In this document: one piece after another, positions 12,123 to 33,540 of the stretch
How positions within the stretch are numbered: the first letter of the stretch is position 1
Layout: every line of letters starts with the position of its first letter
Assembly: GCA_016861265.1 (NCBI GenBank)
Contig: BOLA01000001.1
Location: 852,136 to 916,135 of the forward strand
DNA length: 64,000 nucleotides
Source of the DNA: Patescibacteria group bacterium
Lineage (GTDB): Bacteria > Patescibacteriota > Dojkabacteria > J137
Direction: 5' to 3'
The notes under the pieces: model-generated
Seen by the model: only the letters and a program-made list of their open reading frames with translations
The model's database searches: none
What the model was told of the DNA's origin: nothing
Position numbers and translations under genes: made by a program

Positions 12123-12181
12123 CTAATTATAAAAAATCCCACTATTAAATAGTAGGATTTTTCGAATATTTAAGCCAGTTA

Positions 12182-12589: not shown

Positions 12590-12666
12590 AAAAATTCTAT
12601 AAAAGCTAACGTTTTAAATCTTACACTAAGTCTTTTGTTTTATCTATAAAAACAGCTGATTGCCTT

Positions 12667-14040: not shown

Positions 14041-14047
14041 ACAAAAG

Positions 14048-14119: not shown

Positions 14120-14474
14120 ATACACTAAGGCTCGTGAATTATATCTAATCCCCAGGCTCTTGTCTACCGAGTTTGAATTCAGATACCAGAAGTAGGTAAT
14201 AACTTTAGCGATTATTACTCAAAATTTCCGTTATTAATACGCCTGCCGATAAGATTTTACAACTTTATGACTTCTTCTGCAAAATTAAAGAAATCGCCCA
14301 AAGCCTTTTAGAGCCTAATCAATCGCAATTGATGCTTTAATGTCTAAAAGTATATATAAGTTTCTGGCCAAATTATCACAAAGCTTAGTCGCTAATTACA
14401 TGAAAATGTAATGATACTAAATTCCCCCTGATCATAGTAATTTAACCTTCGGATAGAAAAGGCAAAATATCCTC

Positions 14475-14840: not shown

Positions 14841-14853
14841 ATGATTACATTTA

Positions 14854-16014
14854 TTAAAGTAATTTGATTTTTTGTATTAAGTAATTAAAATTCTTTCTGT
14901 AGTCAAAGCCAGATGATACTGAATAACTTTTTGTATTTTTAAATATTTGTATTAGTTCTTTTCTTCTTTCTTCTGTTTTTAAATTGGTCATTTTTGTTAA
15001 ACTCTTGAAAAGCATAACCGTAGGTGCAAGGCTTACTTCTAAAAATCTATCAACAATTTCAGTGAGGCTATTTTTCTTAATTGATATGCCAGACTTATTT
15101 TTATCTAGAGAAACCTTTAAAACATGGGTTATTTGATCGGTTGAAAGATTACCTTTACTTTTGGATAGAGCATCAAAATATATCGACATTTGTTCTTTCT
15201 TCCCAAGTTCGAATAGTTCTTTTTTCTTCATATGTGCCATATCTAAAAAAGCATTATTGATAATGCCAGCGTTAACAAAGAAATCTTTAAATTCTAAGTA
15301 TGTACCGACTCTGATATTGAAATAGTTTCTTATATTATAATTAAGTATCGCCCCATATCTCGTAACATATGTTGTTTCCTCTGTAATGATTTGCCAGCCA
15401 CTTGCTAAAAACAACAAAGCAAAAGTTGTTTTCCCACCTAAAGATGAATTACTGAGAAGAATATTGTTTTTCCCATCACTTACTAACCCACCATGCACTG
15501 CGTATAAGTCACCGTATAATAAGTACGGTGTAAGCAATAAAATATTAATCATAGTCAATGCTTTTTTCTCATTTTTAACTGCCATTAAGCATTCGCTAGA
15601 TTCCGTATTATAAATATAATAAAAATGATCGTAGCATTTGATAATGTAAAATTTATTATCAACTGTGCATTTTGAGCCAGAGGTATTGTGTGTTGCTAAG
15701 TTAAATTTCTTTACTCTCGGATTAGTAGACCATTCCGCGTGTAGAAATATCAACTCAATCTTTTGGAAAATATCTTCGTTTTCTAAGATAAAAGCTTTGA
15801 TGTTATTACGATTATTTTTCTGTGAAGTGCTTAATAGTGTATTGAAAGAATGACTAAATTCTATTAAGTGATCAGAACATAAGTCATAATTACAAGTTAT
15901 AGTTGTTATTAGATTATCACTAATCAAACTATGTACAGTATGGCTTGATTCATTTGTTATAGCTTTTAAACTATCAATAAAAATTTCGTTTACTTTTGCG
16001 GTTAAATCATTCAT
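14854..16014 (-). CDS. HPr-kinase-C-terminal-domain-like P-loop serine kinase
   Basis: YAVHGGLVSDGKNNILLSNSSLGGKTTFALLFLASGWQIITEETTYV matches the HprK_C pattern (HG.lv...G.llLitG.SG.GKSt.AL.L...G..lvaDD). Confidence 0.55.
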   Translation of the reverse strand: MNDLTAKVNEIFIDSLKAITNESSHTVHSLISDNLITTITCNYDLCSDHLIEFSHSFNTLLSTSQKNNRNNIKAFILENEDIFQKIELIFLHAEWSTNPRVKKFNLATHNTSGSKCTVDNKFYIIKCYDHFYYIYNTESSECLMAVKNEKKALTMINILLLTPYLLYGDLYAVHGGLVSDGKNNILLSNSSLGGKTTFALLFLASGWQIITEETTYVTRYGAILNYNIRNYFNIRVGTYLEFKDFFVNAGIINNAFLDMAHMKKKELFELGKKEQMSIYFDALSKSKGNLSTDQITHVLKVSLDKNKSGISIKKNSLTEIVDRFLEVSLAPTVMLFKSLTKMTNLKTEERRKELIQIFKNTKSYSVSSGFDYRKNFNYLIQKIKLL

Positions 16015-16028
16015 AGAAAATCCAGTGT

Positions 16029-17051
16029 TTACTTATAATTTTTTATAATATCGTATGAAAATAGTCTATCTATCAAACTTCCAGTATCTTCCATCTTTTT
16101 TTCAGGCTTATACTGGTCAAAAATTACTGTCATAATATTATCGCTTATATAACTATATTTCTGATAAAGTAAATTAACATTGTTTAATGACAGTATCTCT
16201 GGAAAAATCTCAGCGGTATAATTTAGTGTAAAAAACACATGTTTATCAAAACCGTACTTTAGAGAGTCTTCGAATATTTGGTCGATGTTAATTTGTTCGA
16301 AATATTTTTGGATAAAAGTATATATATCAACAAATTTATATAAATCCAATACCTTTCTTTTTTTTACAAGGTCTAATAAGGCTGAATCTTTGTAAAGGTG
16401 GCTACACAGATGGATAAATAGGTGTTCTTCTTTTAACGAATAGATTGAAAAGTTGTCATCACTAGAAATGAGAACTCGTTCCTCCAAAAAATAATCTACC
16501 ACTCCATTAGAGGTGTTTGGCGTCCAGTCTAAAGAAAAATTAACATCGATATCAATAGTTTTAATAGTTATTTCATTAAGTATTTTAACAAAAGGAGCCA
16601 TTTCACCTCTAGTATTTATAGATTGCGTAAGTGTGTGTTGGTCAAATTCGTTAACAATATCTTTACTATAATCATACTTGCCTTGCAAAAAACCTAAATC
16701 ATACAAAATCCCTTTTACTTTTTGAATTGATTTTTTTGATACTAATATATCTATATCATTAAAAGCTCTAGTACCTGAGGGGTAAATAGTACTTGATAAG
16801 ACTGATCCTTTTAAGAATGTATGTTTTACATTTGCTTCCGATAACTTTGAAGAAATGCTTTTAATATATTCTTTTTGTAAATCTGTTCTTATGCTTTGTG
16901 CCTGATGGATCATATAAATTGTGAAAAAAACAGGAAAATCTAGTTTTCTTACATCGATGGAGTTTACAACTTGATATGCAAGGCCAGCAACTCGGTGGTA
17001 GCATAAGTATCCTAAAACTTCGATCCAATTTAAAGTTTTATCACTCAGCAC
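16029..17051 (-). CDS. uncharacterised nucleotidyltransferase (PF14907-like, MNT/pol-beta superfamily)
   Basis: GSVLSSTIYPSGTRAFNDIDILV is a G-S...DxD nucleotidyltransferase motif. The ORF is about 340 aa, typical for this family, and appears to start with GTG. Confidence 0.5.
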   Translation of the reverse strand: MLSDKTLNWIEVLGYLCYHRVAGLAYQVVNSIDVRKLDFPVFFTIYMIHQAQSIRTDLQKEYIKSISSKLSEANVKHTFLKGSVLSSTIYPSGTRAFNDIDILVSKKSIQKVKGILYDLGFLQGKYDYSKDIVNEFDQHTLTQSINTRGEMAPFVKILNEITIKTIDIDVNFSLDWTPNTSNGVVDYFLEERVLISSDDNFSIYSLKEEHLFIHLCSHLYKDSALLDLVKKRKVLDLYKFVDIYTFIQKYFEQINIDQIFEDSLKYGFDKHVFFTLNYTAEIFPEILSLNNVNLLYQKYSYISDNIMTVIFDQYKPEKKMEDTGSLIDRLFSYDIIKNYK

Positions 17052-17208
17052 TTCAATAAGTCTTTCATTTTTTTTATTGCCTAATTTTACTATCTCTAGT
17101 ACAGCATTATGTTCTTTTTTTATAGTGGTTTCTTTATTAAATATATAACAGGAATGATAATATGAAGACGAGGTAAAGTCAAATCTGTCCAGTAAATCAG
17201 TTGATTAG

Positions 17209-18144
17209 ATGCAATTAGTATGGTATAAATCTTTTTTAGAATTAAAAAGTTTTATGAATATGCTTGATAACAAATATCATTCTTCAAAAATCTGTTTAGG
17301 AACATGGCGAATGGGAGGAGACGTTAAGCCAAATCCTAATAATGATGATGAAAAAGACATTGATGCCATTAAATATGCAATCAGTAAAGGTATTTCACAT
17401 ATAGATACCTCAGAAAGCTATGCAGATGGCAAATCTGAGTTGCTCGTTGGAGAAGCAATAAAAAAGATATCTAGGGACAAATATTTTTTAGCTACTAAAG
17501 TTCGTGAATATAATCTTTCTTATGACAGTGTTATTAGCTCCTGTGAAAAATCTCTACAAAGACTTAATGTTCCAAGCATTGACTTATATTACATCCATAA
17601 ACAAAATCCACTCATTCCCATTGAAGAAACAACTAGAGCCTTAAATAAGCTCATTGATACTGGACTTATTAAACATATAGGGCTGAGTAATGTCGGAATT
17701 GCTACGATAAAAAAATATTCTCAACTACTAAACAGTCCAATTTATGCAGTTCAAAATCAATATAATCTCGTTTGTCGTGAGTCTCAAAGAAAAGGTGTTA
17801 CAGATTATTGTAAACTAAGTGGAATTCAATTCATTGCGTGGAGACCTATTCTACTTTCATATCCGGGAGTTGTAGATCCCTATTATCATACTGGCACGTA
17901 CAGATTATTGGATGAAATGGCTAAAAAATATAACAAAACAAATACACAAATTGTGGCCAAGTGGCTTGTACAACAAGATGGAGTTTCTATTGTTTTTAAA
18001 AGTTCTAACAAAGAACATATTGATGAAATTTTAGATATTGAAAATTTTAAGCTTTCCGATAGTGATTGGGAAATATTAGATAAAGATTTTCCAGTGCAAA
18101 AAGATTTAGGGTGTACTGCTGACGTTTATTTTGAGTTATCGTAA
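17209..18144 (+). CDS. aldo/keto reductase family oxidoreductase
   Basis: It carries GTWRMGG, IDTSESYADGKSE and LLDEMAKKY, consistent with an AKR (alpha/beta)8 barrel. The true start is probably the internal ATG near 17254 (MNMLDNK). Confidence 0.7.
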   Translation: MQLVWYKSFLELKSFMNMLDNKYHSSKICLGTWRMGGDVKPNPNNDDEKDIDAIKYAISKGISHIDTSESYADGKSELLVGEAIKKISRDKYFLATKVREYNLSYDSVISSCEKSLQRLNVPSIDLYYIHKQNPLIPIEETTRALNKLIDTGLIKHIGLSNVGIATIKKYSQLLNSPIYAVQNQYNLVCRESQRKGVTDYCKLSGIQFIAWRPILLSYPGVVDPYYHTGTYRLLDEMAKKYNKTNTQIVAKWLVQQDGVSIVFKSSNKEHIDEILDIENFKLSDSDWEILDKDFPVQKDLGCTADVYFELS

Positions 18145-18224
18145 CAAATCGTTATCCTTATATCGCAATTTAGTTTGCTTAATGAGATAATACAATTTAT
18201 TTTACCAAGTCTAGAAAATGATCC

Positions 18225-19373
18225 ATGGTTAATATTATACAAAGAGATACAAAAATCAAAGAACCATATGAATCCCTTTACAAATTGAATATTGGCCTAT
18301 CTATTGACGAGTTTGAAGCAGAAGAGGCAATGTTGGAGATTTTGAAGGAAGAAAATTTACAAAAAAGAGTAAGTCTTTTAACAATGTTACTAAATGGGGT
18401 TATGATTAAGGGACCTTCTGTTTCTGAAGTAAAAGGATTAATAAACGCCTCATTATCGTTGGATGGTATATTAAAAACACCAAGACCAAAAATTATTTTG
18501 CCAAATAAAGAACTCTTAGTTGGTGTAGCGTCAAGTGGTAAAAAGGGGTTTAAAACAATAAATATTACTACACCTGCTAGTTTTGTTGCGGCTGCTTGTG
18601 GTGCATTTACTGCAAAGGCATGTTCACATTCAACGTCTTCCAAAACAGGTTCCTCTGATCTTTTAGAAATAATTGGTATCAATATAAATATCCCTTTCAA
18701 AGAAAAAGTCACAATATTACAAGAAAAGAGAATTGCTTTTTTTTCAATTGAAGACACAACTCCAAATTTTGCTAAAGTTTATGAAGGCGTATTTTATGCT
18801 CCGCACGCCATGAGTTTTGCCCTAGCTGGACTTAGCTTTCCGGTCAAAATTGATGCTCTTGTATATGGTTTGTCACATCCCAATGTTAAATTGTCGTTAG
18901 AGGTGTATAAAGAATATGGTTTTAAAAATGTTTTAGTCTACTCATCTAGTGAAGACGGTGTACATTATTTAGATGAATTACCAATCTCTGGTTACGCTAA
19001 TATCATAGGTATGAAAAATGGCAAGGTTGTCCGGAAAATATCAGCTAATATAAAAGATACATTTCCTTTCAATCCAAGTAATAGTTTAAAAGAATTAGCC
19101 GAAAAGGAAACGAAAATTGATAATGTCAAGGCTTCTCTAAGAGTACTAAATGGTATAGGCTTAGAAAGCCATACTGATGCTATATGCATTAACGCAGCAC
19201 CTATTATTCTTTTAGCGGGAAAGGTTAAGTCGTTAAAAGAAGGATATTTATTGGCAAAGAAAAATATTCAGGAAGGAAAAGTATTTAAATTGTTTTTAGA
19301 AGTGGTTGAATTGTATGGGGGAGATTTAAATCAAATAACGAATCTATTATCAGAATCTGATCCTTTAATTTGA
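18225..19373 (+). CDS. TrpD-fold protein (anthranilate phosphoribosyltransferase / glycosyltransferase family 3-like) with degenerate catalytic motifs. It is possibly YbiB-like.
   Basis: TINITTPASFVAAACGAFTAKACSHSTSSKTGSSDLLE aligns with TrpD [38 protein letters not shown]. GTGGD is replaced by ASSGKKG and KHGN by KACSHS. Confidence 0.5.
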   Translation: MVNIIQRDTKIKEPYESLYKLNIGLSIDEFEAEEAMLEILKEENLQKRVSLLTMLLNGVMIKGPSVSEVKGLINASLSLDGILKTPRPKIILPNKELLVGVASSGKKGFKTINITTPASFVAAACGAFTAKACSHSTSSKTGSSDLLEIIGININIPFKEKVTILQEKRIAFFSIEDTTPNFAKVYEGVFYAPHAMSFALAGLSFPVKIDALVYGLSHPNVKLSLEVYKEYGFKNVLVYSSSEDGVHYLDELPISGYANIIGMKNGKVVRKISANIKDTFPFNPSNSLKELAEKETKIDNVKASLRVLNGIGLESHTDAICINAAPIILLAGKVKSLKEGYLLAKKNIQEGKVFKLFLEVVELYGGDLNQITNLLSESDPLI

Positions 19374-19465
19374 AAGCAAGGTATCAGATATTTAAAAAGA
19401 ATTATGCTCTATATGCCTGTCTGTGCTATAATCCATTAATATTTATGTTTGTTAGATTATAAAAT

Positions 19466-20578
19466 ATGAATTCAAATTTTGAGGATCCGAATAAAGAAAA
19501 AGAGGAAAGACAGACTATTATAGAAAGGCCTATTGCTGAACAGCCGCTCGCATCTTTTGAGCAACAGGAGAGTATCCAATGGAAAGTTGAAATCTTTACA
19601 GGTATTAGACCAACTGGGGATTTGACGGTGGCTAATTTTGTAGGGGCAGTAGCACCTATTCTTGAATTGCAAAATAATGGCAAACATCCTATGGTTTTTG
19701 TAGCTGATCTTCATGCAATGACAGATAAAGAACCTAAGATAGCAATGCAATTCACCAATGATGTTGTTGCAGATTATATAGCTTTAGGACTCAATCCAGA
19801 GCAAACGGATATATTTGTACAGTCTACAATTGCTCAACAGGTTGGACAACTCACATTATATTTAATGAGACATATTTCAATTGCTGAGCTTATTAGAGTA
19901 CCTACATTGAAAGATAAACTGAAAGATGGTCAAAGAGAAGAAAATGCAAGTGCTTTACTAGCAACTTACCCTGTCATGATGGCTGCAGATATTTTAATAC
20001 AGAGAGCAAAAGAAGTTCCTGTTGGAGAAGATCAAGTTCCACATATTGAAGTGACAAGATTACTTGCTAAACGCTTTAACGCACAATATGGTCAAACCTT
20101 GTATGTACCCAAAGTTCAACAAGTAGAAACATTAAGAATACGATCTTTGAAAGGTGAAGGTAAGATGAGTAAAACAAATCCCAATGGTGCTATTTTTTTA
20201 ACTGATAGCCTTGATGAGGTTGCAAAAAAAATTAAAAAGGCTGAAACAGCATTTGCAGGAGAAATGAGTCCTACTCTAGCAAGTCATGTTACTCTAGCAA
20301 AAAATCTAACCTATAAACCAGAAGATAAAGTTCTAATAGATGAGATAATAGAAGCACATATGCAGGGGCAAACTGTAATGGGTGATTTTAAAAAGATATT
20401 TACAGAAATTACATTAAGGTTTATAGAAAATTTCCAACAAAGAAGGGCACAAGTAATGTCCGATCCTACATATATTCCATCTATTCTAGAATACGGAGCT
20501 AAAAAGGCAAGAGAAAATGCGGACGAAACATTAGGTTCCGTTTACGAAGCTATGACTAGTGGCGCAAAGGAGGGATAA
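19466..20578 (+). CDS. trpS: tryptophanyl-tRNA synthetase (class I; TIGN-type HIGH variant) with an N-terminal extension of about 40 aa
   Basis: FTGIRPTGDLTVANFVGA resembles the Bacillus-type SGIQPSG..TIGNYIGA, with the KMSKT (KMSKS) motif downstream, and PVGEDQVPHIEVTRLLAKRFN. Confidence 0.7.
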   Translation: MNSNFEDPNKEKEERQTIIERPIAEQPLASFEQQESIQWKVEIFTGIRPTGDLTVANFVGAVAPILELQNNGKHPMVFVADLHAMTDKEPKIAMQFTNDVVADYIALGLNPEQTDIFVQSTIAQQVGQLTLYLMRHISIAELIRVPTLKDKLKDGQREENASALLATYPVMMAADILIQRAKEVPVGEDQVPHIEVTRLLAKRFNAQYGQTLYVPKVQQVETLRIRSLKGEGKMSKTNPNGAIFLTDSLDEVAKKIKKAETAFAGEMSPTLASHVTLAKNLTYKPEDKVLIDEIIEAHMQGQTVMGDFKKIFTEITLRFIENFQQRRAQVMSDPTYIPSILEYGAKKARENADETLGSVYEAMTSGAKEG

Positions 20579-20628
20579 GATTCTTAGGAGTGCAAAAAAT
20601 ATGGTATATATAAATTTGTATATTTCTT

Positions 20629-21726
20629 TTATGATTTGATCTGGTGTGCAAATTTTTGTGCTTGTTTACTAATCAGGTCTGCATCTTCAAAATAATTAAT
20701 CCCGATTGCACTTTTAACTCTCTGTGTCGTTTGGGAAGCCACATTACGTGCTTCTCGGCTGCCTTCAAGCAATATTTTATAAACTTGTGGAATGTTTTTT
20801 TGATATTCCTCTCTCCTAGTACGAAGTGGCATTAATTCTTCTTGAATAACATCATTTAAGAAACTTTTTATTTTCGTATCGCCTAGACCTCCTCTTCTGT
20901 AATGATCTTTCAGCTCATCTAAATTATTATAACCAGCTAGGTATCTTTGTAAATGATTAGGTTTACAAAAAGCATCTAAATAAGTAAAAACTGGATTATT
21001 TTCAACAGTGCCGGGATCTTCTACTTTTAAATGATTGGGATCTGTAAACATCCCCATAATTTTTTTCTTAATTTCCTCTGGCGAGTCTGCAAGGTAAATA
21101 CCATTATTTAAAGACTTGCTCATTTTCGCTTTCCCATCTAAGCCTGGTAATCTGCTACAAATATCATTCTCTGGTAATGATGCATTTGGTTCTACCAAAG
21201 TTTCTCCATAGATAGAATTAAAACTTCTAACAATTTCTCGTGTTTGTTCTATCATCGGTAGTTGATCGTCACCTACTGGAACAATATTAGCGTCAAATGC
21301 TGTAATGTCAGCAGCTTGGCTCACTGGATATGTCAAGAATCCAGCAGGAATACTTTTATTAAAACCTCTTAACTTTATTTCTTCCTTTACAGTAGGATTC
21401 CTTTGTAATCTTGCTACTGTAACTAAATTCAGAAAATAATATGTTAACTCACATAGCTCAGGAATCTGGGACTGAATAAAGATAGTAGATTTATTGGGGT
21501 CAATACCACATGCTAAATAATCTAATGCTACCTCTATTACATTTTGTCTTACTTTTTCAACATTGTCTGCGTTATCAGAAAGTGCCTGAGCATCCGCGAT
21601 CATAATAAAGATACCATCAAACTTTCCAGAGTTTTGCAATTCAACTCTTTTCTTTAATGATCCAACATAGTGACCTAAATGCAGTTTTCCTGTGGGCCTG
21701 TCCCCAGTTAGAATAATATTTTTCAT
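20629..21726 (-). CDS. trpS: tryptophanyl-tRNA synthetase (canonical HLGH-type)
   Basis: It carries TGDRPTGKLHLGHYVGSL (HIGH), KMSKSLNN and VPVGDDQLPMIEQTREI, and is 365 aa. Confidence 0.8.
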   Translation of the reverse strand: MKNIILTGDRPTGKLHLGHYVGSLKKRVELQNSGKFDGIFIMIADAQALSDNADNVEKVRQNVIEVALDYLACGIDPNKSTIFIQSQIPELCELTYYFLNLVTVARLQRNPTVKEEIKLRGFNKSIPAGFLTYPVSQAADITAFDANIVPVGDDQLPMIEQTREIVRSFNSIYGETLVEPNASLPENDICSRLPGLDGKAKMSKSLNNGIYLADSPEEIKKKIMGMFTDPNHLKVEDPGTVENNPVFTYLDAFCKPNHLQRYLAGYNNLDELKDHYRRGGLGDTKIKSFLNDVIQEELMPLRTRREEYQKNIPQVYKILLEGSREARNVASQTTQRVKSAIGINYFEDADLISKQAQKFAHQIKS

Positions 21727-21738
21727 AAAGAAACAGTC

Positions 21739-22935
21739 TTAATTCTTATATAAAAATAGTTCGTTGTATGTATCAATATCTTTTTCATATTTCGATTCTT
21801 CCCAAAGGGTTTTAATTTCAATAAAAAACTTCAAATATTCATACTTTATTTTAGTCCAATCTTCGTAATTTTGTTCTAGATTTTCAAAAGCACTTTTGGC
21901 TTCTATTAACTTGTCGGGACTCCAATTAGAAGCAAGTATCATCATTTGTAAAATAACCTCCTCATTTCTCTTCCCACAGTCAATAATTTTCCTATGTAAT
22001 TCCTCTTCGCTATCTCCAACATTAATAGAAGAGTCTGGAATGCTTTTTGACATTTTAACATAAGGGAAAAGACCACCAATAAGCTTTCCATACAATGCAC
22101 CGATTTCAGCATCTTGATGAACCAAGCTATCCACGCCTCCACTCTTCACTTTCATCCTATTAAGTGCAATTCTTGCTAAATACGGATGGTGATGTTCTTC
22201 CAATCCTACCGGCACTATTACACCTCGTTTTTTGTCACGAACTATCGGTAGGATAATATCTGTCATTGTATATGTCCTACTCACCATTTTTGAGAAATCG
22301 TTCCCAAGCAATTGTAATCTTTTATACATATCGTTAGTTACTTCACGATTTTCGAGCAAATCTTCAGTACTTAAAACACTAGAAACAAGTGAAAACACTC
22401 GGGAATGATCATGAAAGTTATGTGTTCTAATTTCACCGTTTTTTTCATTAAATCCCAATTTCTTAATAAAAGATATAAACTGATAGGAATTTCTTATTAG
22501 CTCATTTAATGGCTTTTGTCTTGAATTTAATGCACTTAATTCAGAAATGATTATATGAGTATAAATACCTGTTTGTTTTTGAAGTTCAAGTACTCTAAAA
22601 ATAGAAGAAAGTGTACCGGCCGTTGGGGAATTAGTAGGACCAAATCCTGTTACAATAGCTAACTCGGTCGTAGGAATTTTATTAAAGATTTCTAAATTAT
22701 CGTAACACAAATATTTAGAATTTAATTCATTGTGCTTCCCATAGCCATGTAATTGAATATTATTAGGAAACTTAACATACTTAAAATCTTCGATTATTTT
22801 GCCAAGTTTGTTATTGGAATATTCCAAATCCTTTAATGCATGCTTAAGATCATTTGCAACTTCTTCAATCGATTTATTTTGTTTCTCTGCTATTTCTTTT
22901 AATTCATCATTTGACAAATTTAAATTGGTTTTCAT
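21739..22935 (-). CDS. divergent TrpRS/TyrRS-family class I aminoacyl-tRNA-synthetase-like paralog with a degenerate HIGH motif
   Basis: KMSKSIPDSSINVGD and VPVGLEEHHHPYLARIA align to TrpRS. The HIGH position reads TGFGPTNSPTAGTL, with no His. A coiled N-terminal extension of about 100 aa is present. Confidence 0.5.
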   Translation of the reverse strand: MKTNLNLSNDELKEIAEKQNKSIEEVANDLKHALKDLEYSNNKLGKIIEDFKYVKFPNNIQLHGYGKHNELNSKYLCYDNLEIFNKIPTTELAIVTGFGPTNSPTAGTLSSIFRVLELQKQTGIYTHIIISELSALNSRQKPLNELIRNSYQFISFIKKLGFNEKNGEIRTHNFHDHSRVFSLVSSVLSTEDLLENREVTNDMYKRLQLLGNDFSKMVSRTYTMTDIILPIVRDKKRGVIVPVGLEEHHHPYLARIALNRMKVKSGGVDSLVHQDAEIGALYGKLIGGLFPYVKMSKSIPDSSINVGDSEEELHRKIIDCGKRNEEVILQMMILASNWSPDKLIEAKSAFENLEQNYEDWTKIKYEYLKFFIEIKTLWEESKYEKDIDTYNELFLYKN

Positions 22936-23300
22936 GATTCACAATAGAATGTTTATAAATAAGTATTAAACGCTACACTGTAGCGAAAATTTAACATTTA
23001 TAAGATGTAGTGTCAATTTGTTTGTATTTCATATGAATTCAAAAAATCAGACATTAATGCCATATTTTTTTATTAAAGAATTTATAATTTATTAAATTTC
23101 TTTAAAAAACTACAATAATAGATGTTATTGCAATTTCTTACAAAAATATACATACCCCACTAATTCCATTTCTATCCATTGGTTTGTCCAAATATCAAAA
23201 ATAAATACAGGTACTTTCTTCCCAGATTATATATTTTTCTTGACAAACATAAAAAAGATGGAATAAGATTAGTTAGTTCCTAAATATTAATACTATAAGT

Positions 23301-24104
23301 ATGAACATAAAAGAAGTGGTGATTGAGCCAATATATAAATTATTTAGAGCAGGTCAAAACGCATATTATGAGGCTGGGTTAAATCGTTATCAAGGAGATA
23401 AGTATGACTTAACAACCTTACAAATATCAAATTACTTTTCATTTAGGACTTCTCCGTTTAATGTAGATTTAAGGAAGTTAGCATACTATACAGAACATCA
23501 AATGATACCAGCTCCTAAAAGAGTTGGTATCAATTCTTTTTTAGGTGGAAGTATAGGTAAATATAAATACAAAACATCATTAATGCTTTGGTATATTGGT
23601 GAACTTAAAAAAAGAGGCATTAAAAGTCAGGATGAATTAAGACTACACATTTATAACTACTTTCACACTGAAAATTTACCTCCAAAGCCTGTTTCAGATA
23701 CGCCTTTTGCTGAAAGGTATATTTATACTTGGAGAATAAGCAAAATAACACCTGTACTTTTACCTGAATTTGAAGACTTTAATATTTATATGGAAAATGA
23801 AGAGCCAATTCCTGCAAAAAAGGCCACCTACTATTTTGAAGGTAAGCCATTTGATCAAATTCTCTTCTTTGAACGAAACCTAACAGAAAAAGAAAATGAA
23901 TTTCTTAAGATCTTACGAAAAAACAAAGAGTTTTTAAGTGCAAGTGGTATCAAAACCTATATTCTCAATTCTAAAGAAGAAGTTGAACAAAAAGACATTA
24001 TGGATTTATTCGTGTTTAAAGACTATCCAATAGTTTCAGATGATGATGATAAAAAATCTTATCGAGATTTACTTAATAAAAAATATACTTTTCAAAATAT
24101 ATGA
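23301..24104 (+). CDS. hypothetical protein (element cargo)
   Basis: A 267-aa ORF preceded by a long AT-rich leader. Confidence 0.4.
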   Translation: MNIKEVVIEPIYKLFRAGQNAYYEAGLNRYQGDKYDLTTLQISNYFSFRTSPFNVDLRKLAYYTEHQMIPAPKRVGINSFLGGSIGKYKYKTSLMLWYIGELKKRGIKSQDELRLHIYNYFHTENLPPKPVSDTPFAERYIYTWRISKITPVLLPEFEDFNIYMENEEPIPAKKATYYFEGKPFDQILFFERNLTEKENEFLKILRKNKEFLSASGIKTYILNSKEEVEQKDIMDLFVFKDYPIVSDDDDKKSYRDLLNKKYTFQNI

Positions 24105-24346
24105 TCAAACAAAACGATGAACTGTATGAAATAATATCTTTAAAGGTAAGAAAGCATAATTTGTTGAAAATGATCAAGCCTAAAGCAATTGAAAATCTAA
24201 TCAAGATGATACTTTGGCAGAAAGATGGGGTAATAACACTGATAATTAATAATGCGGAAATTACTAAGTTAAAACACGATTTTGAGATACGTTTAAATGA
24301 GGAAGGAGATTTAAAGACTGACGATAAGACAAAATTTATTAAGTAA
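24101..24346 (+). CDS. small hypothetical protein
   Basis: An 81-aa ORF overlapping the upstream stop (coupled). Confidence 0.3.
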   Translation: MIKQNDELYEIISLKVRKHNLLKMIKPKAIENLIKMILWQKDGVITLIINNAEITKLKHDFEIRLNEEGDLKTDDKTKFIK

Positions 24347-24477
24347 TTCTAATTAACCTTAGCTAACTTGATTGTTTAGAGAGGTCTAAGTTTCAGAAAA
24401 AAGAACATGTTTCTTAATCTGAGATTTGGATCTCTTTTTTTTGTATATATTTTACTTTTTAACAATTTACCAAAAAT

Positions 24478-24876
24478 ATGTCGCTAAACACACCAAAGAT
24501 CATTAAGAACTTTTTGAATGCTAATGAGAAAACAGAGAATAACTTTATCACTGCACTACTGTTAGATAAATCACTATTATTAAAAGAAAAAGAATTGTTG
24601 CTTTTTATCTTTCATTTAGCAAATCGTTCTGGTGATTTAAAAGTAAGTACCAAACAATTGGCTACATTTACTCTTACAGATTTAGAAAAACTCAGGATTG
24701 CCTACAGTGCTAATGCGAGTATAGCTTTTCAAAAACTTCACAGATTAGAAATTATTAATTGGAATAAAACTGAACATACCTTTGAAATCAATAACGACTG
24801 GATAGATGAAATATTAACTAGAGATCAAAACACTAGACTAGAGTTCTTTTACAAGTTATTACTCAAACAAAACTAA
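24478..24876 (+). CDS. hypothetical protein
   Basis: A 132-aa ORF whose stop overlaps the start of the next gene. Confidence 0.35.
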   Translation: MSLNTPKIIKNFLNANEKTENNFITALLLDKSLLLKEKELLLFIFHLANRSGDLKVSTKQLATFTLTDLEKLRIAYSANASIAFQKLHRLEIINWNKTEHTFEINNDWIDEILTRDQNTRLEFFYKLLLKQN

Positions 24877-25811
24877 TGTCTGAAAAGGTTGTTTTAAAAA
24901 TCTCAAAAGAGTTAGATAGAGGTAAAGCCTTTGTGCAAATTTTATCTAACCTAATTCGTAGTCCTGAAATTTCAGATTCAGAATTTAGAACATTCTTAGC
25001 TTTACTTGATTTTAAATGGAATGGGCAATCTAAAATCTTTCCGTCATTAACAACTCTTGAAAAAATACGTCATAAAAGCAGAAAAAGAATTGTTGCTCAT
25101 TTAAAAGGTTTAAAACAGATAGGTTTAATCTCTTATCAGAAATCCTCTGAAAGAAATAGTAATGAATATTTTTTTAACAAGATTGAATTTGAAGCAATAG
25201 ATAAAACGCCACTAGTAGACAAAAGTAAACTAGTGTACAAAACTACACCATCGCTAGGGTCGAAAAGTACACTACAGATAGTGGCGAAAACTACACCCGA
25301 AAGATACGAATATAAGAATACTAAATTTAATAAGACGTTAGCTGAAAACGACTTAAAAAAAATTGCTGATAAAAAGTCACAACGAAGTGACTTTGGAAGT
25401 TTCAAAGTTGATCCCAAAACAGAAGATTTTACTAAATACAATCCAGAAGCACTTGAATATGCAAAGTTACTGGACAATCTTGAAGATATTAAGTTTTATC
25501 AAAACTTGCTTGATGAAAAACAATTTACTCACGAAGAATTGCAATCTGCTTTCTGGAAAACATGTAACGAAATAAATACAGATAAAAAAGATGGCAAAAT
25601 TTTCTGGAAAAAGCCAGGAGCTTTATTTAATAAAAACTTGAAAGCAATTTTAGAACGAAAGAAACAAATTAAGAACGGCTTAGATAAATTAACAGACAGT
25701 AAAACAATTCCTAAAGAAAAAACAGAAAACGAAAAGTTGTCAGAATTTAATAAAAAACGAAATCATGCACTTAATTTATCTCAGAAATTACTAAATAGAG
25801 AAGGAATATAA
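24876..25811 (+). CDS. putative HTH replication-initiator-like protein (tentative)
   Basis: The N-terminal winged-helix-like segment (RTFLALLDFKWNGQSKIFPSLTTLEKIRHKSRKRIVAHLKGLKQIGLI) is followed by a charged region. It lies immediately upstream of the origin-like repeats. Confidence 0.35.
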   Translation: MSEKVVLKISKELDRGKAFVQILSNLIRSPEISDSEFRTFLALLDFKWNGQSKIFPSLTTLEKIRHKSRKRIVAHLKGLKQIGLISYQKSSERNSNEYFFNKIEFEAIDKTPLVDKSKLVYKTTPSLGSKSTLQIVAKTTPERYEYKNTKFNKTLAENDLKKIADKKSQRSDFGSFKVDPKTEDFTKYNPEALEYAKLLDNLEDIKFYQNLLDEKQFTHEELQSAFWKTCNEINTDKKDGKIFWKKPGALFNKNLKAILERKKQIKNGLDKLTDSKTIPKEKTENEKLSEFNKKRNHALNLSQKLLNREGI

Positions 25812-25904
25812 CTGATGAACGAAGTGATGAAACTATGGTGAAACTGCTAATCCGAAAAAATGACTATTTTACGATCTTTAAAAACCTACCAAAGCGAGAG
25901 CCAC

Positions 25905-26165
25905 TAAACCTTACTAACTCCGAACGGGAGTGATTGGGTGCCCTCCTATCGGAGCCCACCCAATCACTCCCTCGACAAAGTTACACGTTGTGTTGTTTGT
26001 CGTCTGAGTTAGTAAGGTTTAGTAGGGTAGGTAGTAGGTAGTTAGTAATAGTAAGTTAGGTAGGATAGATAGAGAAGAATAAAGAAGAGAGATTGAGAAG
26101 ATAGAGATTTTAGGTAGGTTAGTTTTTAAGTATTTGTTGAGATTTATTATTTTTTAATTTTTTTA
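25905..26165. repeat. nested inverted repeats plus C-free purine-rich repeat tract (candidate ori, oriT or att region)
   Basis: The 18-bp inverted repeat ACTAAACCTTACTAACTC...GAGTTAGTAAGGTTTAGT encloses a perfect 15-bp hairpin GGGAGTGATTGGGTG-(16 nt)-CACCCAATCACTCCC (about 25926..25971) and the 7-bp CGACAAA...TTTGTCG. About 150 nt follow with almost no C on the + strand, containing TAGGTAG-like and GAGA/AAGA repeats. Confidence 0.6.
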
Positions 26166-26170
26166 TATAA

Positions 26171-27148
26171 ATGATTGGTTCAAATATTTTAAAAAGTTCT
26201 GATGTGGAAATTTTGTATACAGTGAGTATTTTTAAGTTTATTCCGCTTAAAGTTTTGGCTGATATTTTGATTGCTAAGAATATTTATAGTTTTTATCAAG
26301 GAGTTGCCAGAAGTATTACAAGACTCGAAAAACAGGGGTTGTTAAGAACTAAATACTATGCAAATCATTCAAAAATCATATTTTTATCAAAGACAGGTGC
26401 AGGAGTTTTATCAGTGAATAAAGGTATTCCACTAGAAAACATTAACTGTCCTGACCGAATTACTAATGTAAATTTCTTTGCCATTGAACATACAATTGAA
26501 GTGTCTAAATTGTTTTACATATTTTCTACTGAGTGCGAAAGATATGGATTTAAGCTAGTAGAATTCCAAGGAGATGCTTATCAAAGATACATATATTCTT
26601 TTAAGGAATGGATTAACAATGACCAAAAGAAAATAACTAAATATGTAATTCCAGATGCTTTTGTAAGAATTGATGTTGGAGATGAAAAGATTTATGAATT
26701 TTATGTTGAATATGATAAAGGTTCTGAATATTCAAAAGATATTGCAGAAAAATATCAAAAGTATTTTGAATACTATTCCCTTTCAGAAAAGTACAAGCTT
26801 AATAACGATGATAAGTTTCCATCTGTTTTATTCATAACGACAACTAAGAAAAGAATATTGAACCTTATTCCTGATATGCCTAAAAAGGATGGGAATAGAT
26901 ATGAGCTATACGGAAACAGAGGCTTAAGGAATGTAGTATTTCAAGGAATTGAAAACGCAAAGGGAGATACGAATCACGATAGTTACAGAATTCACAAGTT
27001 TTTGAAAGATGAAAACAAGTTTCTGTTCATTGAGTACGAAAGCCTATTAAAGAATAAGTTTGAAGCTACTTGGTTAAACTTTATTCAACAGCCAATTTCC
27101 TTACATTACTTTTTAACAAATCCATTTATTGAACCTAAATCTTATTGA
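26171..27148 (+). CDS. replication-relaxation-family-like protein (tentative)
   Basis: It has an N-terminal wHTH-like region (ILYTVSIFKFIPLKVLADIL...ITRLEKQGLL), as in the PF13814-type plasmid proteins. Confidence 0.35.
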   Translation: MIGSNILKSSDVEILYTVSIFKFIPLKVLADILIAKNIYSFYQGVARSITRLEKQGLLRTKYYANHSKIIFLSKTGAGVLSVNKGIPLENINCPDRITNVNFFAIEHTIEVSKLFYIFSTECERYGFKLVEFQGDAYQRYIYSFKEWINNDQKKITKYVIPDAFVRIDVGDEKIYEFYVEYDKGSEYSKDIAEKYQKYFEYYSLSEKYKLNNDDKFPSVLFITTTKKRILNLIPDMPKKDGNRYELYGNRGLRNVVFQGIENAKGDTNHDSYRIHKFLKDENKFLFIEYESLLKNKFEATWLNFIQQPISLHYFLTNPFIEPKSY

Positions 27149-27407
27149 TGAAAATCTAAAGTTTATAAATCAATTTGATATTGATTCTAAAGAAATTTCT
27201 GCTGAAAGAGCCAGAGAAATCTTGGGTTCAAAGGCTGACGGCTTGAATGATGATGAATTACAGGTTGTTATAAATATGGTGATGACTATGGCTGAAATAG
27301 CTGTCGGAGATTTTTTTAATAAAAAAGTACCAGAAGATGAAAAGAAGTTATATAATTTAACTGCAAATCAATCAAAAAGGGTAAAACGAAAGAAAACTAG
27401 ACTTTAG
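27129..27407 (+). CDS. small hypothetical protein
   Basis: A 92-aa ORF overlapping the upstream stop. Confidence 0.3.
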   Translation: MNLNLIDENLKFINQFDIDSKEISAERAREILGSKADGLNDDELQVVINMVMTMAEIAVGDFFNKKVPEDEKKLYNLTANQSKRVKRKKTRL

Positions 27408-27509
27408 TCTGTTATCTTTACAGATAAGGGGCTACTTGGAACAGTCTTTACCCAAAGATTGATTTGCACCAGGTAGTCCCTTTTCTGTTTAGTTTTTACT
27501 ATTTAAAAT

Positions 27510-29084
27510 ATGAACAAACCAAAAGCAGTCATTTACACTAGAGTTTCATCAGATAGACAGATTGATAATACAAGTCTTGCCGATCAATTAAAAAAAGGTA
27601 AAGAGTATTGTGAGCGAAGAGGCTTAGAATTCGTTACAGAATTTAGAGAAGAAGGAGAATCAGCAGAACTAGCAGATAGAACAATTTTGAAAGAAGCATT
27701 GAATTATTGTGGCTTAAAGAAAAATGATATTACATATTTTCTAGTATTTAAGTTCGATAGATTCTCTCGTTCTGTTGAAAACCACCACCTAATTAAAGCT
27801 ATATTAAGCCGTAGTGGAGTTAAATTGATCTCAATGACAGAAGAGACACCTGACACTCCGGCAGGAAGATTAACAGAAAATATGCTTGCAACAATAGCCC
27901 AGTTTGATAACGAAGTCCGAACTGAAAGATGTATTAATGGGATTAAAGCAAAATTAAGACAAGGTATTTGGGTTTATGATTCTCCACTTGGATATATGAA
28001 AGATACAAACTTTAAAGGTAGTGGTGCTAAACCAGATATTCCAGATCCAGCAAAGTTTGAAATTGTAAAAGAAGGATGGAAAATGATGCTAACTGGAAGA
28101 TATAGGTCAAAAGATGTTTTAGAGTTTTTTCATAAAAAGGGATTAAGAAATAGGTATGGGAATAAATTAATTGCACAATCTGTTTCAAAGATTTTTTACA
28201 ATAAGTTCTATGCAGGATTATTGTTTGTTGATAGTTTTGGAATTGAAGAAAAAGGACAGCACCAACCAATGATTACGCTAGATGAATTCTATGCAGTTCA
28301 AGCAATTTTGGCTAAATACAATAATGGAAATCAAGTTAAGCATTTAGGTTACAATCCAGAATTTCCACTGAATAAAACAATTAAGTGTACTTGTTGTGGG
28401 AAATTTATGACTGGTGCTTGGTCTAAACAAAAAGGAGTATTTGGATATTACGCGTGCAGAAGACCCGAATGTAAGGAAAGAGATAAAATCAAGAAAGCTG
28501 ATGCAGAGACTTCATTTATTGAGCTATTGGAGAGAATTACTCCATCTCAAGAATTAGTAGATTTATACAAGGAAGCAGTTACCAAAGTATATTTGAAAAA
28601 ACTTCGAGAGAAAGAAGATATACAAAGGCATATTAAAAGTGAACTAAATGAGCTTGAGGTTAGATTATCTAAACTTGAAGAGCTTGTTGAAACAGATGTC
28701 TATTCTGTTGAAAAGTTTAAAGAAAAGTCTAAACCACTTGTACATGAGATTGCAGTTAAGAAAGTATCACTTTCTGAAACAAACATTGATTTATATGATG
28801 CGGAGGAATGTGTTAATTACTCCGTAAATTTTTTACAACTTTTACCTAAATATTGGATATCTCTGTCTGTAAAGGCAAAACATAGATTGCATGAGGTACT
28901 TTTCCCCGAAGGTCTAATTCTCGAAAATGGAAGAGTTACAACCAAGGCATTAGCCCAGTTCTATAATGATATTGAAGCAATTTCAGATGGTAATGTCCCA
29001 TCTGGTACACCCGGAGGGAGTCGAACCCCCAACCTTCGGTTCCGAAGACCGCTGCTCTATCCATTGAGCTACGGGTGCGCATAA
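27510..29084 (+). CDS. large serine recombinase/integrase
   Basis: It has an N-terminal resolvase domain with the catalytic Ser (AVIYTRVSSDRQ), a recombinase domain and a zinc ribbon (CTCCGKF...YYACRRPEC), followed by a coiled coil. The 3' end reads through tRNA-Arg. Confidence 0.8.
   Translation: MNKPKAVIYTRVSSDRQIDNTSLADQLKKGKEYCERRGLEFVTEFREEGESAELADRTILKEALNYCGLKKNDITYFLVFKFDRFSRSVENHHLIKAILSRSGVKLISMTEETPDTPAGRLTENMLATIAQFDNEVRTERCINGIKAKLRQGIWVYDSPLGYMKDTNFKGSGAKPDIPDPAKFEIVKEGWKMMLTGRYRSKDVLEFFHKKGLRNRYGNKLIAQSVSKIFYNKFYAGLLFVDSFGIEEKGQHQPMITLDEFYAVQAILAKYNNGNQVKHLGYNPEFPLNKTIKCTCCGKFMTGAWSKQKGVFGYYACRRPECKERDKIKKADAETSFIELLERITPSQELVDLYKEAVTKVYLKKLREKEDIQRHIKSELNELEVRLSKLEELVETDVYSVEKFKEKSKPLVHEIAVKKVSLSETNIDLYDAEECVNYSVNFLQLLPKYWISLSVKAKHRLHEVLFPEGLILENGRVTTKALAQFYNDIEAISDGNVPSGTPGGSRTPNLRFRRPLLYPLSYGCA
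29004..29078 (-). tRNA. tRNA-Arg (anticodon UCG) with encoded CCA
   Basis: It folds manually as acceptor GCACCCG/CGGGTGT, U8A9, D-arm GCTC-AATGGATA-GAGC, anticodon arm GCGGT-CTTCGGA-ACCGA and T-arm GGGGG-TTCGACT-CCCTC, then A-CCA. Confidence 0.75.
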
Positions 29085-32618: not shown

Positions 32619-32685
32619 GTCAATGATTTTCTATTTTGTTTAAACTAAGTTTAGAGATTGTGATATATTTTGCTGCCGGTTTGTG

Positions 32686-32715
32686 TTGACGATATGCGAT
32701 ATTGTGATATATAAT
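32686..32715 (+). promoter_or_regulatory. sigma70-like promoter (TTGACG-18-TATAAT) for the island B gene 1
   Basis: SD AGAGGAG follows, 8 nt before the ATG at 32762. Confidence 0.45.
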
Positions 32716-32761
32716 AATTATATCTATTGGCAATGCGAATGCATTCAGAGGAGTTTTTAAA

Positions 32762-33070
32762 ATGGCTGTTACACAGCAACAATCAGATACGGTGAGGGTC
32801 AGTGGAATCTCTTGGCTTGAGCGGACATGGTACATGTTGCTTGCACTCATCCGCTCCACTGCCGTTCTGATTTTCGCCATCGGGATTCTTTTAATCGGAG
32901 TTGCGCTTATCTCGGAAAGCAATGTCCGGGTAATCGCCCAAACTGATGAGGAAGGCTGCATCACCTCGGTGTATGCGACCAACCACCCGATGAACGACCA
33001 ATGGGTCGTCCGTATCTGGGGTGATAAACCCGCAGACGATGGCAAGCCCGATCCGCACTTCTGCCACTAG
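32762..33070 (+). CDS. small TM-anchored protein encoded by GC-rich island B
   Basis: A 102-aa, GC-rich ORF with a central TM (LIFAIGILLIGVALI). Its own terminator hairpin lies at about 33076..33100. Confidence 0.45.
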   Translation: MAVTQQQSDTVRVSGISWLERTWYMLLALIRSTAVLIFAIGILLIGVALISESNVRVIAQTDEEGCITSVYATNHPMNDQWVVRIWGDKPADDGKPDPHFCH

Positions 33071-33075
33071 CACAA

Positions 33076-33100
33076 AGGGGGTACTGCTAACAGCACCCCC
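33076..33100 (+). terminator. terminator hairpin after the island B gene 1
   Basis: GGGGGTaCTG-ctaa-CAGcACCCCC. Confidence 0.4.
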
Positions 33101-33176
33101 CAAACTTTTCCAATTTCAATTCTGTATATACTGTTTATATATGTTATAATATATTCAGCACTAAGGAGGTGCACGA

Positions 33177-33482
33177 ATGTTAAAAAAGCTCTTAGTAGTT
33201 ACCCTATTGGCTGTGTTGCTCGGAGTGTTTCCAGTAGCAGCGCAGGAAGACGATTCGCAGGTCAGCGAGTTTACCGTCTACTTGCCTCCATTCTCCGTAG
33301 AATTCTTCTACGCGGACTGGCTGGCTGACGACACTACTTGCCAGTTCTGGGGAACGTCGTTCGGTCTCATGCGTGAGATTGGCGAGCAAATGCCGAAAGC
33401 CTACCGCTTAAATGTGGTGTACGGCGGATGTGGCGTGTTGCGAACGTCAATCTTCACCTACGATGCCAATAGCGAGAAATAA
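33177..33482 (+). CDS. small secreted protein (signal peptide) encoded by GC-rich island B
   Basis: A 101-aa ORF with signal peptide MLKKLLVVTLLAVLLGVFPVAAQ. Upstream are TATAAT at about 33145 and SD AAGGAGG. It is GC-rich. Confidence 0.5.
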   Translation: MLKKLLVVTLLAVLLGVFPVAAQEDDSQVSEFTVYLPPFSVEFFYADWLADDTTCQFWGTSFGLMREIGEQMPKAYRLNVVYGGCGVLRTSIFTYDANSEK

Positions 33483-33505
33483 CTACCCTCCGTAACGTGT
33501 CCGCA

Positions 33506-33530
33506 GGCTTCGGGAGTAACTCCCGAAGCC
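33506..33530. terminator. bidirectional terminator hairpin
   Basis: GGCTTCGGGAG-taa-CTCCCGAAGCC lies between island B and the clpC stop. Confidence 0.55.
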
Positions 33531-33540
33531 TTAAGTTTGC

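Follow-up and report, generated by a model that had tools for sequence, protein, structure and literature searches.

Genes and features at the locus

The DNA analyzed here, referred to as the window, is a stretch of 64,000 nucleotides from a Patescibacteria group bacterium of the Dojkabacteria (GenBank assembly GCA_016861265.1, contig BOLA01000001.1, positions 852,136 to 916,135). It is AT-rich (G+C content of ~31%), and between positions 23301 and 29084 it contains seven open reading frames (ORFs) on the plus strand, of 267, 81, 132, 311, 325, 92, and 524 aa, the last of which encodes a large serine recombinase (LSR, or serine integrase) and overlaps a tRNA-Arg gene. A preliminary description of the sequence had counted eight ORFs; seven is the number of co-oriented, non-overlapping plus-strand ORFs of at least 75 aa. 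That they are mostly hypothetical and end in a 524-aa serine recombinase was borne out by ORF analysis and by searches against Pfam and PHROGs, and the helix-turn-helix (HTH) initiator-like and replication-relaxation-like proteins named in that description correspond to Pfam matches to HTH_36 and Replic_Relax. Window positions 23212–29008 very probably represent a 5.8-kb integrative plasmid-like element, which its own LSR inserted at the 3′ terminus of the tRNA-Arg(UCG) gene.

tRNA genes were called with ARAGORN and Rfam, protein families were assigned with Pfam, PHROGs, TIGR00233, and PADLOC, and plasmids were searched in PLSDB. The related contigs or loci that were compared with the window carry labels from L002 to L144; several of them are metagenomic or Logan assemblies, which could be chimeric.

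The LSR gene occupies positions 27510–29084. Its product matched Resolvase (PF00239, E = 1.5e-27, residues 6–153), Recombinase (PF07508, E = 1e-6, residues 181–269), and, barely above the cut-off (25.4 versus 25.3 bits), Zn_ribbon_recom (PF13408, residues 287–338); in PHROGs it matched the integrase family phrog_95 (E = 2.4e-67). The serine nucleophile within YTRVSSDRQ and the zinc ribbon, both pointed out before, hold up in an alignment of 19 homologues, in which the catalytic S13 as well as R11, D83, R84, and R87 are invariant, and so are C293, C296, C316, and C321. Residues ∼345–440 are charged and appear heptad-like by eye, and among solved structures only the catalytic domain found a sequence match. 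By these sequence criteria, the enzyme is a large serine recombinase.

The right junction and the C-terminus of the integrase

The tRNA-Arg(tcg) gene is located on the minus strand, at 29003–29078 according to ARAGORN and at 29006–29078 according to Rfam (65.6 bits), and the LSR ORF reads the antisense of the entire tRNA. The last 27 codons of the ORF (SGTPGGSRTPNLRFRRPLLYPLSYGCA) span the tRNA plus 6 nt, with the stop codon TAA at 29082–29084. The earlier statement that the last ∼26 codons are the tRNA-Arg sequence was thus right as to the overlap and wrong as to the strand, the tRNA being on the minus strand and the ORF antisense to it. The conserved part of the protein ends with ...PSGT (codon ACA, 29006–29008), whereas the last 25 residues stem from the antisense of the host tRNA, which is itself intact (29006–29078, minus strand).

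All members of the cluster of LSRs with at least 90% identity share ...DGN(V/I)PSGT and then differ completely. The DNA of the related loci is identical through TCTGGTAC and diverges afterwards, into tRNA-Arg in L005 and L138, into tRNA-Leu(taa) in L139 and L002, and into a non-tRNA sequence in L004. The proposal that the overlap of gene and tRNA marks an attachment (att) site is in good agreement with this divergence beyond TAC. The residues after ...SGT (T497) are the only part of the LSR that differs between sites, and the ORF stays whole; when it is joined to the element's own left end, an excised-state protein of 516 aa ending with ...SGTFFPDYIFFLTNIKKME is predicted, compared with 524 aa in the integrated state. 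As deduced from these genes, the C-terminal tail of the integrase is shown to depend on the integration site. Another LSR of at least 90% identity, in L144 (P0127, 2648–3199), is joined after TCTGGTAC to a third, non-tRNA sequence (AGAACGGGGAAATACAAAT...), resulting in a 578-aa ORF; no known element end matched there.

The P arm of the att site, GATGGTAATGTCCCATCTGG (28985–29005, plus strand), lies inside the last integrase codons, so that the P arm of attP corresponds to the last ∼20 bases of the conserved coding sequence; it is identical or near-identical in L005, L138, L139, and L004. The crossover core of attR, TAC (29006–29008), is the antisense of tRNA nucleotides 73–71. A long direct repeat or a tRNA-derived repeat was not found in the region, including the left end, and attL and attR share only (GG)TAC. 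In line with the expectation that a serine integrase would leave no long direct repeat, a 3-bp core, TAC, is the only sequence common to both junctions. Judging from the junctions, crossover is shown to fall within tRNA nucleotides 71–73, with no tRNA segment displaced or duplicated and the tRNA left intact. The arrangement is neither that of a classical tyrosine-type island, as the integrase is of the serine type and no repeat of a tRNA fragment was found at the far end, nor that of an SSV1-type partitioned integrase, as the gene is not split and its ORF is whole.

The empty site and the movement of the element

An empty tRNA-Arg site in a related genome, which the preliminary description had recommended looking for, was found in L007. 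Positions 78–5552 of this contig are collinear with window positions 36034–29114, and 5821–14999 with 13980–5811. L007 has the same sortase gene, tRNA-Arg, 104 bp, and then tRNA-Lys, and it encodes none of the 13 proteins of the element and its neighboring island. Its tRNA-Arg is identical to that of the window through ...GGGTGTA (A73) and then continues with TTGAAATTC, compared with CCAGATGGG in the window. Because identity to the empty site stops after A73, and because the related LSR loci diverge after TAC, the right junction was assigned to TAC at 29006–29008. The same tRNA-Arg and the same right flank are found in L005 and L138, the latter carrying a variant element at tRNA-Arg. Presence or absence of the element at this locus is therefore polymorphic (empty in L007, a variant in L138), which speaks against a set of genes fixed here across related genomes.

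At the right junction, the element contributes TGG (29003–29005), which provides the tRNA-Arg with an encoded CCA; element DNA, starting with this CCA, takes the place of the 3′ trailer of the tRNA. The CCA must come from the element, because neither the empty-site tRNA, which reads TTG where the window reads CCA, nor the tRNA-Lys of the window encodes one. The tRNA-Arg of L138 differs from that of the window by a compensatory change of the 7–66 pair, which indicates that the tRNA next to the element is still under selection. That the element also supplies U72, changing G1-C72 to G1.U72, was considered and ruled out, as the empty-site tRNA of L007 already has U72.

The left end was located by means of L139, in which a 97% identical LSR resides at tRNA-Leu(taa), together with homologues of the 267-aa, 132-aa, HTH_36, and Replic_Relax ORFs. 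Homology to L139 starts exactly at window position 23212, with unrelated left flanks, and it also ends at TAC. The earlier assignment of the left end to the AT-rich region 22936–23300 could thus be narrowed to 23212–23214. Here, the attL crossover core TAC is preceded by the host arm ...AAATAAATACAGG and followed by the P′ arm of the element, TTTCTTCCCAGATT...; the junction reads ...AAATACAGG TAC TTTCTTCCCAGATT... in the window and ...AAAATGTA TAC TTACTTCCCAGATT... in L139. A chance match to GGTAC (23211–23215) was estimated at ∼0.2, and it is the homology to L139 that supports it as the junction. As homology to L139 both starts and ends at TAC, both ends of the element are TAC and the unit moves alone, measuring 5.8 kb in the window and 6.2 kb in L139, with two different tRNAs as targets. 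The ∼6-kb integrative element proposed earlier is, accordingly, 5.8 kb long, absent from L007, and present at tRNA-Leu(UAA) in L139.

From these junctions, an attP of ∼50 bp, GATGGTAATGTCCCATCTGG-TAC-TTTCTTCCCAGATTATATATT, is predicted, and attB can be reconstructed as ...AAATAAATACAGG-TAC-ACCCGGAGGGAGTCGAACC. The predicted attP-B junction is CCCATCTGGTACTTTCTTCCCAGATT, with AAATAAATACAGGTACACCCGGAGGGAG as the corresponding empty site; the predicted attP-A junction is CCCATCTGGTACCAGAAGTAGG, with GAATTCAGATACACCCGGAGGG as the outer empty site.

Two more related loci bear on target choice. L002 carries an 84% identical LSR at tRNA-Leu, and its left end (TAC CATTGG near position 6100) is tentative only. 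L004 carries a 95% identical LSR at a non-tRNA site whose sequence is similar to tRNA antisense (an equal or better score was reached by 11 of 2000 shuffles); its right flank matched no tRNA in ARAGORN or Rfam, even at E ≤ 10. The elements of L004 (1–6600) and L138 (1–1600) have the same left flank, with genes for a BlaR1-like M56 peptidase and a BlaI-like repressor, and different right flanks: tRNA-Arg and sortase in L138, a tRNA-like relic and an FAD oxidoreductase in L004. The flank may be carried along by the element, or else the locus has undergone rearrangement.

The neighboring island and its outer end

In the window, tRNA-Arg and tRNA-Lys are 14.9 kb apart, compared with 104 bp in L007. 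The 5.8-kb unit stands as described before, yet it is not the only extra DNA at this site, as a further 9 kb (14187–23211) is also missing from L007. This island lacks an integrase gene and contains ORFs of 121 and 386 aa, as well as genes for NTP_transf_5, an aldo-keto reductase, a TrpD-like protein, two tryptophanyl-tRNA synthetases (TrpRS), and a 398-aa protein that is TrpRS-like but divergent; both TrpRS exceed the TIGR00233 cut-off. The island is not part of the 5.8-kb element and was possibly accreted earlier by a similar event.

Its left border reads GAATTCAGA TAC CAGAAGTAGG and includes an exact copy of the 11-mer TACCAGAAGTA (14184–14194, plus strand), an att-like outer end designated the type-A P′ motif, which is situated 65 nt from tRNA-Lys and at the L007 synteny break. 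A motif family, TACCAGAAATACAT, is found at the left edge of the L004 and L138 elements as a local peak of conservation, and joining TACCAGAAGTA to the P arm yields a 12-bp palindrome, TCTGGTACCAGA. The more distant locus L052 provides an independent, longer palindromic attP, with only TA common to its two junctions. An exact inverted copy of TACCAGAAGTA is present at 14637–14647 (minus strand), inside the ORF at 14475–14840 and 442 bp from the copy at 14184; it lacks conservation in L004 and could be due to chance (∼0.03 expected within the island) or constitute a second recombinase site permitting inversion.

The block between 14475 and 22935 is tryptophan-themed, comprising the two TrpRS, the 398-aa TrpRS-like, TrpD-like, aldo-keto reductase, and NTP_transf_5 genes and the 386-aa ORF without assigned function. 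L143 has these genes in a different arrangement, along with additional ones for an aromatic ammonia-lyase, a radical SAM/SPASM protein, and an HTH_17 protein; the block could be a biosynthetic cluster or one for antibiotic self-resistance. A 93% identical strain (L141, 1–29 in the comparison) shares the three TrpRS-like genes, but its similarity to the window ends at 23021, 190 bp short of the left end of the element, with 29 nt left in the contig. In this strain, the block beyond 19232 is replaced by genes for DsbB and another class I synthetase, marking the region as a recombination hot spot.

Alternative explanations

Since the island is missing from L007 together with the element, the mobile unit might be the whole 14.8 kb between tRNA-Lys and tRNA-Arg (14187–29005), as a composite or as the outcome of tandem accretion; the same integrase could then excise a 5.8-kb or a 14.8-kb circle. 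This is conceivable but rather unlikely. It would account for the lack of the entire 14.8 kb in L007 and for the synteny break carrying TAC plus exact TACCAGAAGTA, for which ∼0.14 exact matches per window are expected by estimate and 2 were found. The motif at the left edges of L004 and L138 (LSRs 93–95% identical), its perfect palindrome with the P arm, and the palindromic attP of L052 point the same way, as does the host arm at 14170–14183, which resembles the tRNA-Arg trailer of L007 (TGAATT, in the same register). However, L139 shows the 5.8-kb unit moving alone, and island genes occur without an LSR and in other arrangements in L141 and L143. Conservation of the 398-aa gene family is broad (412 homologues at 60–97% identity), which fits resident genes better than cargo. 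Furthermore, similarity to the left ends of L004 and L138 does not extend past the 11 nt of the motif; these two share the left flank (BlaI/BlaR1) and not the right one, so that the motif as an element end is not fully secure, and an alternative spacer alignment by MAFFT places the break 40 nt from the tRNA. A single 14.8-kb element had been a candidate for the main answer and was downgraded on account of the movement seen in L139 and of the island genes found without an LSR elsewhere.

The evidence for movement also makes it improbable that the locus is a fixed, immobile relic, in which the integrase ORF runs on merely because the tRNA antisense happens to contain no stop codons. Such a relic would be in line with the failure to find an excised form in IMG/VR and with the identical junction in the 93% identical strain L142. 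Yet the LSR is full length with all family-invariant residues present, and the presence in L139 of an LSR of 97% identity at another tRNA implies recent movement; the core genes are intact, the origin-like structure is conserved with compensatory changes, and the antisense overlap in 36 of 48 distant relatives (see below) reflects the location of the att site, not chance. That conservation of the overlap would also be expected if the tRNA were cargo travelling with the element, overlapping the integrase gene while the att sites lie elsewhere, but this can be given hardly any credence: L007 retains the identical tRNA-Arg by the same sortase gene without the element, integrases of 95–97% identity are joined to different tRNAs or none, each with different host flanks, and identity between related elements stops at TAC, not beyond the tRNA.

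Several observations weigh against a mobile 5.8-kb element at tRNA-Arg as the explanation preferred here. Neither an excised circle nor an attP junction was found; IMG/VR was the only collection scanned, with 0 hits for the type-B attP and 38 hits for type A, which is about the number estimated by chance for a 16-mer, and none of them was next to an LSR. No empty site was found in a genome having the 398-aa gene directly next to tRNA-Arg, and strain L142, 93% identical, has the same attL junction, so there is no polymorphism at that distance. No palindrome is visible in the type-B attP, in contrast to most attP sites of LSRs; a palindromic TA core would abolish polarity in the LSRs studied, yet the orientation is invariant here. 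In addition, the replication proteins match their families only weakly.

Half-sites and crossover

The integrase probably recognizes the tRNA acceptor and T arm, GGAGGGAGTCGAACCC (29013–29028), as the B′ half-site. This 16-mer is identical in the Arg target of the window and the Leu target of L139 and has one mismatch in L002, while the L004 site holds a degraded version of the block, resembling tRNA antisense more than 99% of shuffles do. Recognition of this half-site would explain why near-identical integrases are found at tRNA-Arg, tRNA-Leu, and a tRNA-like relic. On the host side, the arms are rich in AT and carry T(G/A)AA(A/T)(A/T) at about −10 to −5. The crossover dinucleotide within the shared core TAC would be TA or AC. 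TA is palindromic, forms the center of the type-A palindrome, and comprises the only bases shared in L052; AC is asymmetric. The best-centered candidate, TA, would be palindromic, as opposed to the asymmetric cores of the LSRs studied.

Gene content and replication

The P′ arm and leader (23215–23300, plus strand) are conserved with L139 and contain a sigma-70-like promoter match, TTGACA-18-TAAGAT (23240–23269), ahead of the first ORF; this is a consensus match only, and such matches are not enriched over shuffles. The 267-aa ORF (23301–24104, plus strand) matched no family, is 82% identical in the L139 element, and is absent from the L004, L138, and L002 variants. The 81-aa ORF (24101–24346, plus strand), likewise without a family match, is a candidate accessory or directionality factor. 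The 132-aa ORF (24478–24876, plus strand), for which no function was assigned, is the first gene of the core common to all six related elements and is 67–82% identical in L002, L004, L138, and L139.

Next in order, the 311-aa ORF (24876–25811, plus strand) encodes a replication-initiator-like protein (Pfam HTH_36, E = 6e-6; PHROGs replication initiation families phrog_270, E = 1.3e-6, and phrog_678, E = 4.2e-6), and the 325-aa ORF (26171–27148, plus strand) encodes a likely nicking initiator or relaxase (Replic_Relax, PF13814, E = 5.9e-11; phrog_9381, "replication initiation by nicking," E = 2e-12). The 92-aa ORF (27129–27407, plus strand) lies just upstream of the LSR gene and matched no family; its position is filled by an ORF of 89–110 aa in related elements, and it is a candidate directionality factor.

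Between the HTH_36 and Replic_Relax genes, an inverted repeat capable of forming a three-way junction (25899–26027) is a candidate for the origin or the nick site. G-rich, imperfect direct repeats, AGTTAGTAAGG...GGTAGG (26007–26064, plus strand), come next; they are iteron-like and have a GC skew of 0.55. As DNA, the three-way junction folds with −46 kcal/mol (z = −11.8); its core is invariant in 4 elements, and among 6 elements it comprises 48 pairs, 7 of them with compensatory changes, the outer stem being the part that covaries. In Rfam, the structured intergenic region had only a meaningless sub-threshold match. The structure is read as the putative origin, or the nick site, of a replicon of the rolling-circle type, or as an origin of transfer (oriT). 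In L005 (102–240), the outer stem combines a window-type 5′ arm with a 3′ arm of the L004 type, so that several pairs are broken, which suggests a recombinant between element variants.

Among the ORFs of the element there are no genes for capsid, terminase, tail, or lysis proteins, and the PHROGs matches comprise only integrase and replication families. The element is not a temperate phage, for which 5.8 kb is too small. Neither Tra proteins, nor a type IV secretion system, nor a coupling protein were detected among the seven ORFs with Pfam and PHROGs, and PADLOC yielded no significant annotation of a defense system for the ORFs without assigned function. The search of the cargo against phage and plasmid databases thus gave integrase and replication matches in PHROGs, and no relative of the Replic_Relax protein was found among PLSDB plasmids. 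This protein could serve as a relaxase or as a replication nickase, and the conserved hairpin could correspondingly be oriT or ori.

After excision, the circle would replicate from the three-way-junction region by means of the nicking (Replic_Relax) and initiator-like (HTH_36) proteins. As the element contains no transfer genes, its spread between cells may, speculatively, rely on host functions.

A clade of integrases ending antisense inside tRNA genes

Metagenome contigs were scanned with a degenerate pattern, and together with the alignment of 19 homologues this yielded 80 loci at 29–58% identity to the LSR. Forty-eight of them could be resolved, meaning that the stop codon was followed by at least 60 nt of contig, and in 36 of these 48 an opposite-strand tRNA overlaps the 3′ end of the LSR ORF. 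With a looser criterion, an antisense tRNA was present in 39 of the 59 loci with the stop codon in the locus; in one further locus, the LSR ORF reads right through tRNA-Lys. The overlap is not due to chance, because it occurs in 36 of 48 loci against a background of only 54 tRNAs in 755 kb across all loci. Among the tRNAs overlapped, Glu(ttc) accounts for 15 and Glu(ctc) for 13, followed by Ala with 4 and Met and Lys with 2 each; in most loci the element side meets the tRNA end with TGG, the encoded CCA. Relatives without a tRNA tend to have a helix-like C-terminal extension instead. Two relatives at 39–40% identity are located at the ends of 40–53-kb viral contigs. The element is thus one of an extensive LSR clade in which the recombinase gene terminates within a tRNA gene, in antisense orientation to it.

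A palindrome search for the left ends in 31 loci was convincing only for L052 and possibly for L028, and doubtful for L029, L033, and L003. In L003 (1–9900), a 47% identical LSR overlaps tRNA-Ile(tat); upstream are a replication gene of the Phage_CRI type, an HTH/M78 peptidase pair, and a complete type I restriction-modification system, possibly as cargo. The left end of this locus was not found within 10 kb.

A far-reaching generalization would be that the clade moved attP into the last codons of its own integrase gene and uses the tRNA acceptor and T arm as one attB half, with crossover at the discriminator. Integration would rewrite the trailer with CCA and switch the 3′-processing route, the swapped tail would report the integrated or free state and help to set the direction without a classical directionality factor, and the loose other half-site would let islands accrete next to tRNAs, the 9-kb TrpRS-rich block of the window being an example. 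As a whole, this scheme is a long shot.

Relation to known systems

[quoted passage not shown] The latter (Ghinet et al, 2011; PMC3218068) resemble the present element in being small and integrative, with a serine recombinase containing a Recombinase domain, a replication module, and a tRNA gene target. As far as their description there allows a comparison, they differ in phylum (Actinobacteria), in having an FtsK-like Tra, and in their RepSA/RepAM-type initiators, whereas the window element contains HTH_36 and Replic_Relax proteins and no transfer gene; the passages of that paper that were searched contain neither antisense read-through of a tRNA nor crossover at the discriminator. The filamentous phages phiRSM1 and phiRSM3 of Ralstonia also have a serine-family recombinase using the end of a tRNA gene as attB; as far as the passages on them go, however, their Int is of the small resolvase/invertase type and not an LSR, and their attP shares a 13-base core with the tRNA, compared with 3 bases here (PMC4471427; PMC3218068).

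The LSRs of phiC31, Bxb1, TP901-1, and A118 have the same domain order (catalytic, recombinase, zinc ribbon) and short att sites with a tiny core and no long repeats. Their known examples target protein-coding genes, whereas the target in the window is the intact 3′ end of a tRNA, and the LSR of the window reaches no more than 25–28% identity with any integrase among 50,697 phage records. Durrant et al, in their LSR atlas (PMC10083194), analyzed only protein targets and do not mention tRNA, and integrative mobilizable elements (IMEs) with serine recombinases are described, in the part of a review dealing with them, as elements that disrupt dispensable (protein) genes (PMC5704250).

Tandem accretion at tRNA sites, as covered in the same review (attL-decayed integrative and conjugative element-attI-IME-attR, similar to cis-mobilizable elements; PMC5704250), likewise places an integrase-less block with an att-like end beside an autonomous element at the same tRNA. 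The cases in the part consulted involve tyrosine integrases, with the full target regenerated, whereas the internal junction of an LSR should be a P/P′ hybrid, and none was recognized at 23212. Tycheposons of Prochlorococcus are also small cargo elements with their own replication genes at tRNA genes, and according to the sections of the preprint concerned with them, a large serine recombinase gene is present in a minority, 27 among 937; almost all, however, use a tyrosine recombinase with partial tRNA repeats, and hosts and replication genes are unrelated (bioRxiv 10.1101/2020.12.28.424599).

Among the SSV1-type tyrosine integrases of archaea, the att site lies inside int and matches a tRNA gene, so that integration alters the int ORF. 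There, int is split into two inactive parts and a long tRNA segment is duplicated, whereas the gene in the window is whole and only its tail after ...SGT is swapped. While the enzyme class and tRNA-adjacent islands are already known, we found no description of a broad clade in which attP occupies the final integrase codons, crossover takes place at tRNA nucleotides 71–73, no part of the tRNA is duplicated, and the integrase tail depends on the site.

The finding is of moderate weight in itself and more interesting as an entry to a neglected clade of tRNA-targeting LSRs and as a possible genetic tool. The antisense-tRNA arrangement extends across dozens of metagenomic lineages, which points to a missed class of tRNA-targeting integrases; methods that look for repeats of tRNA fragments would miss such islands, because no tRNA fragment is duplicated. 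Ultra-small Patescibacteria are hard to manipulate genetically, and a native LSR with attP and attB mapped in an intact tRNA, together with a candidate replicon, provides a basis from which integration or shuttle vectors could be built. Few mobile elements have, to our knowledge, been described in Saccharibacteria and other ultra-small Patescibacteria, and literature searches gave no description of one like this. The locus raises the questions of how polarity is achieved if the core is TA, whether the swapped tail is of any consequence, and whether the CCA supplied by the element affects maturation of the tRNA.

Beyond the element, a 0.9-kb stretch (32620–33540) between PPDK_N-like and ClpB-like genes has a G+C content of 43–50%, within a genome of 31% G+C. 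It gave no Rfam match at E ≤ 1, and its only notable ORF (33177–33482) encodes 101 aa with a signal-peptide-like start; the stretch looks foreign.

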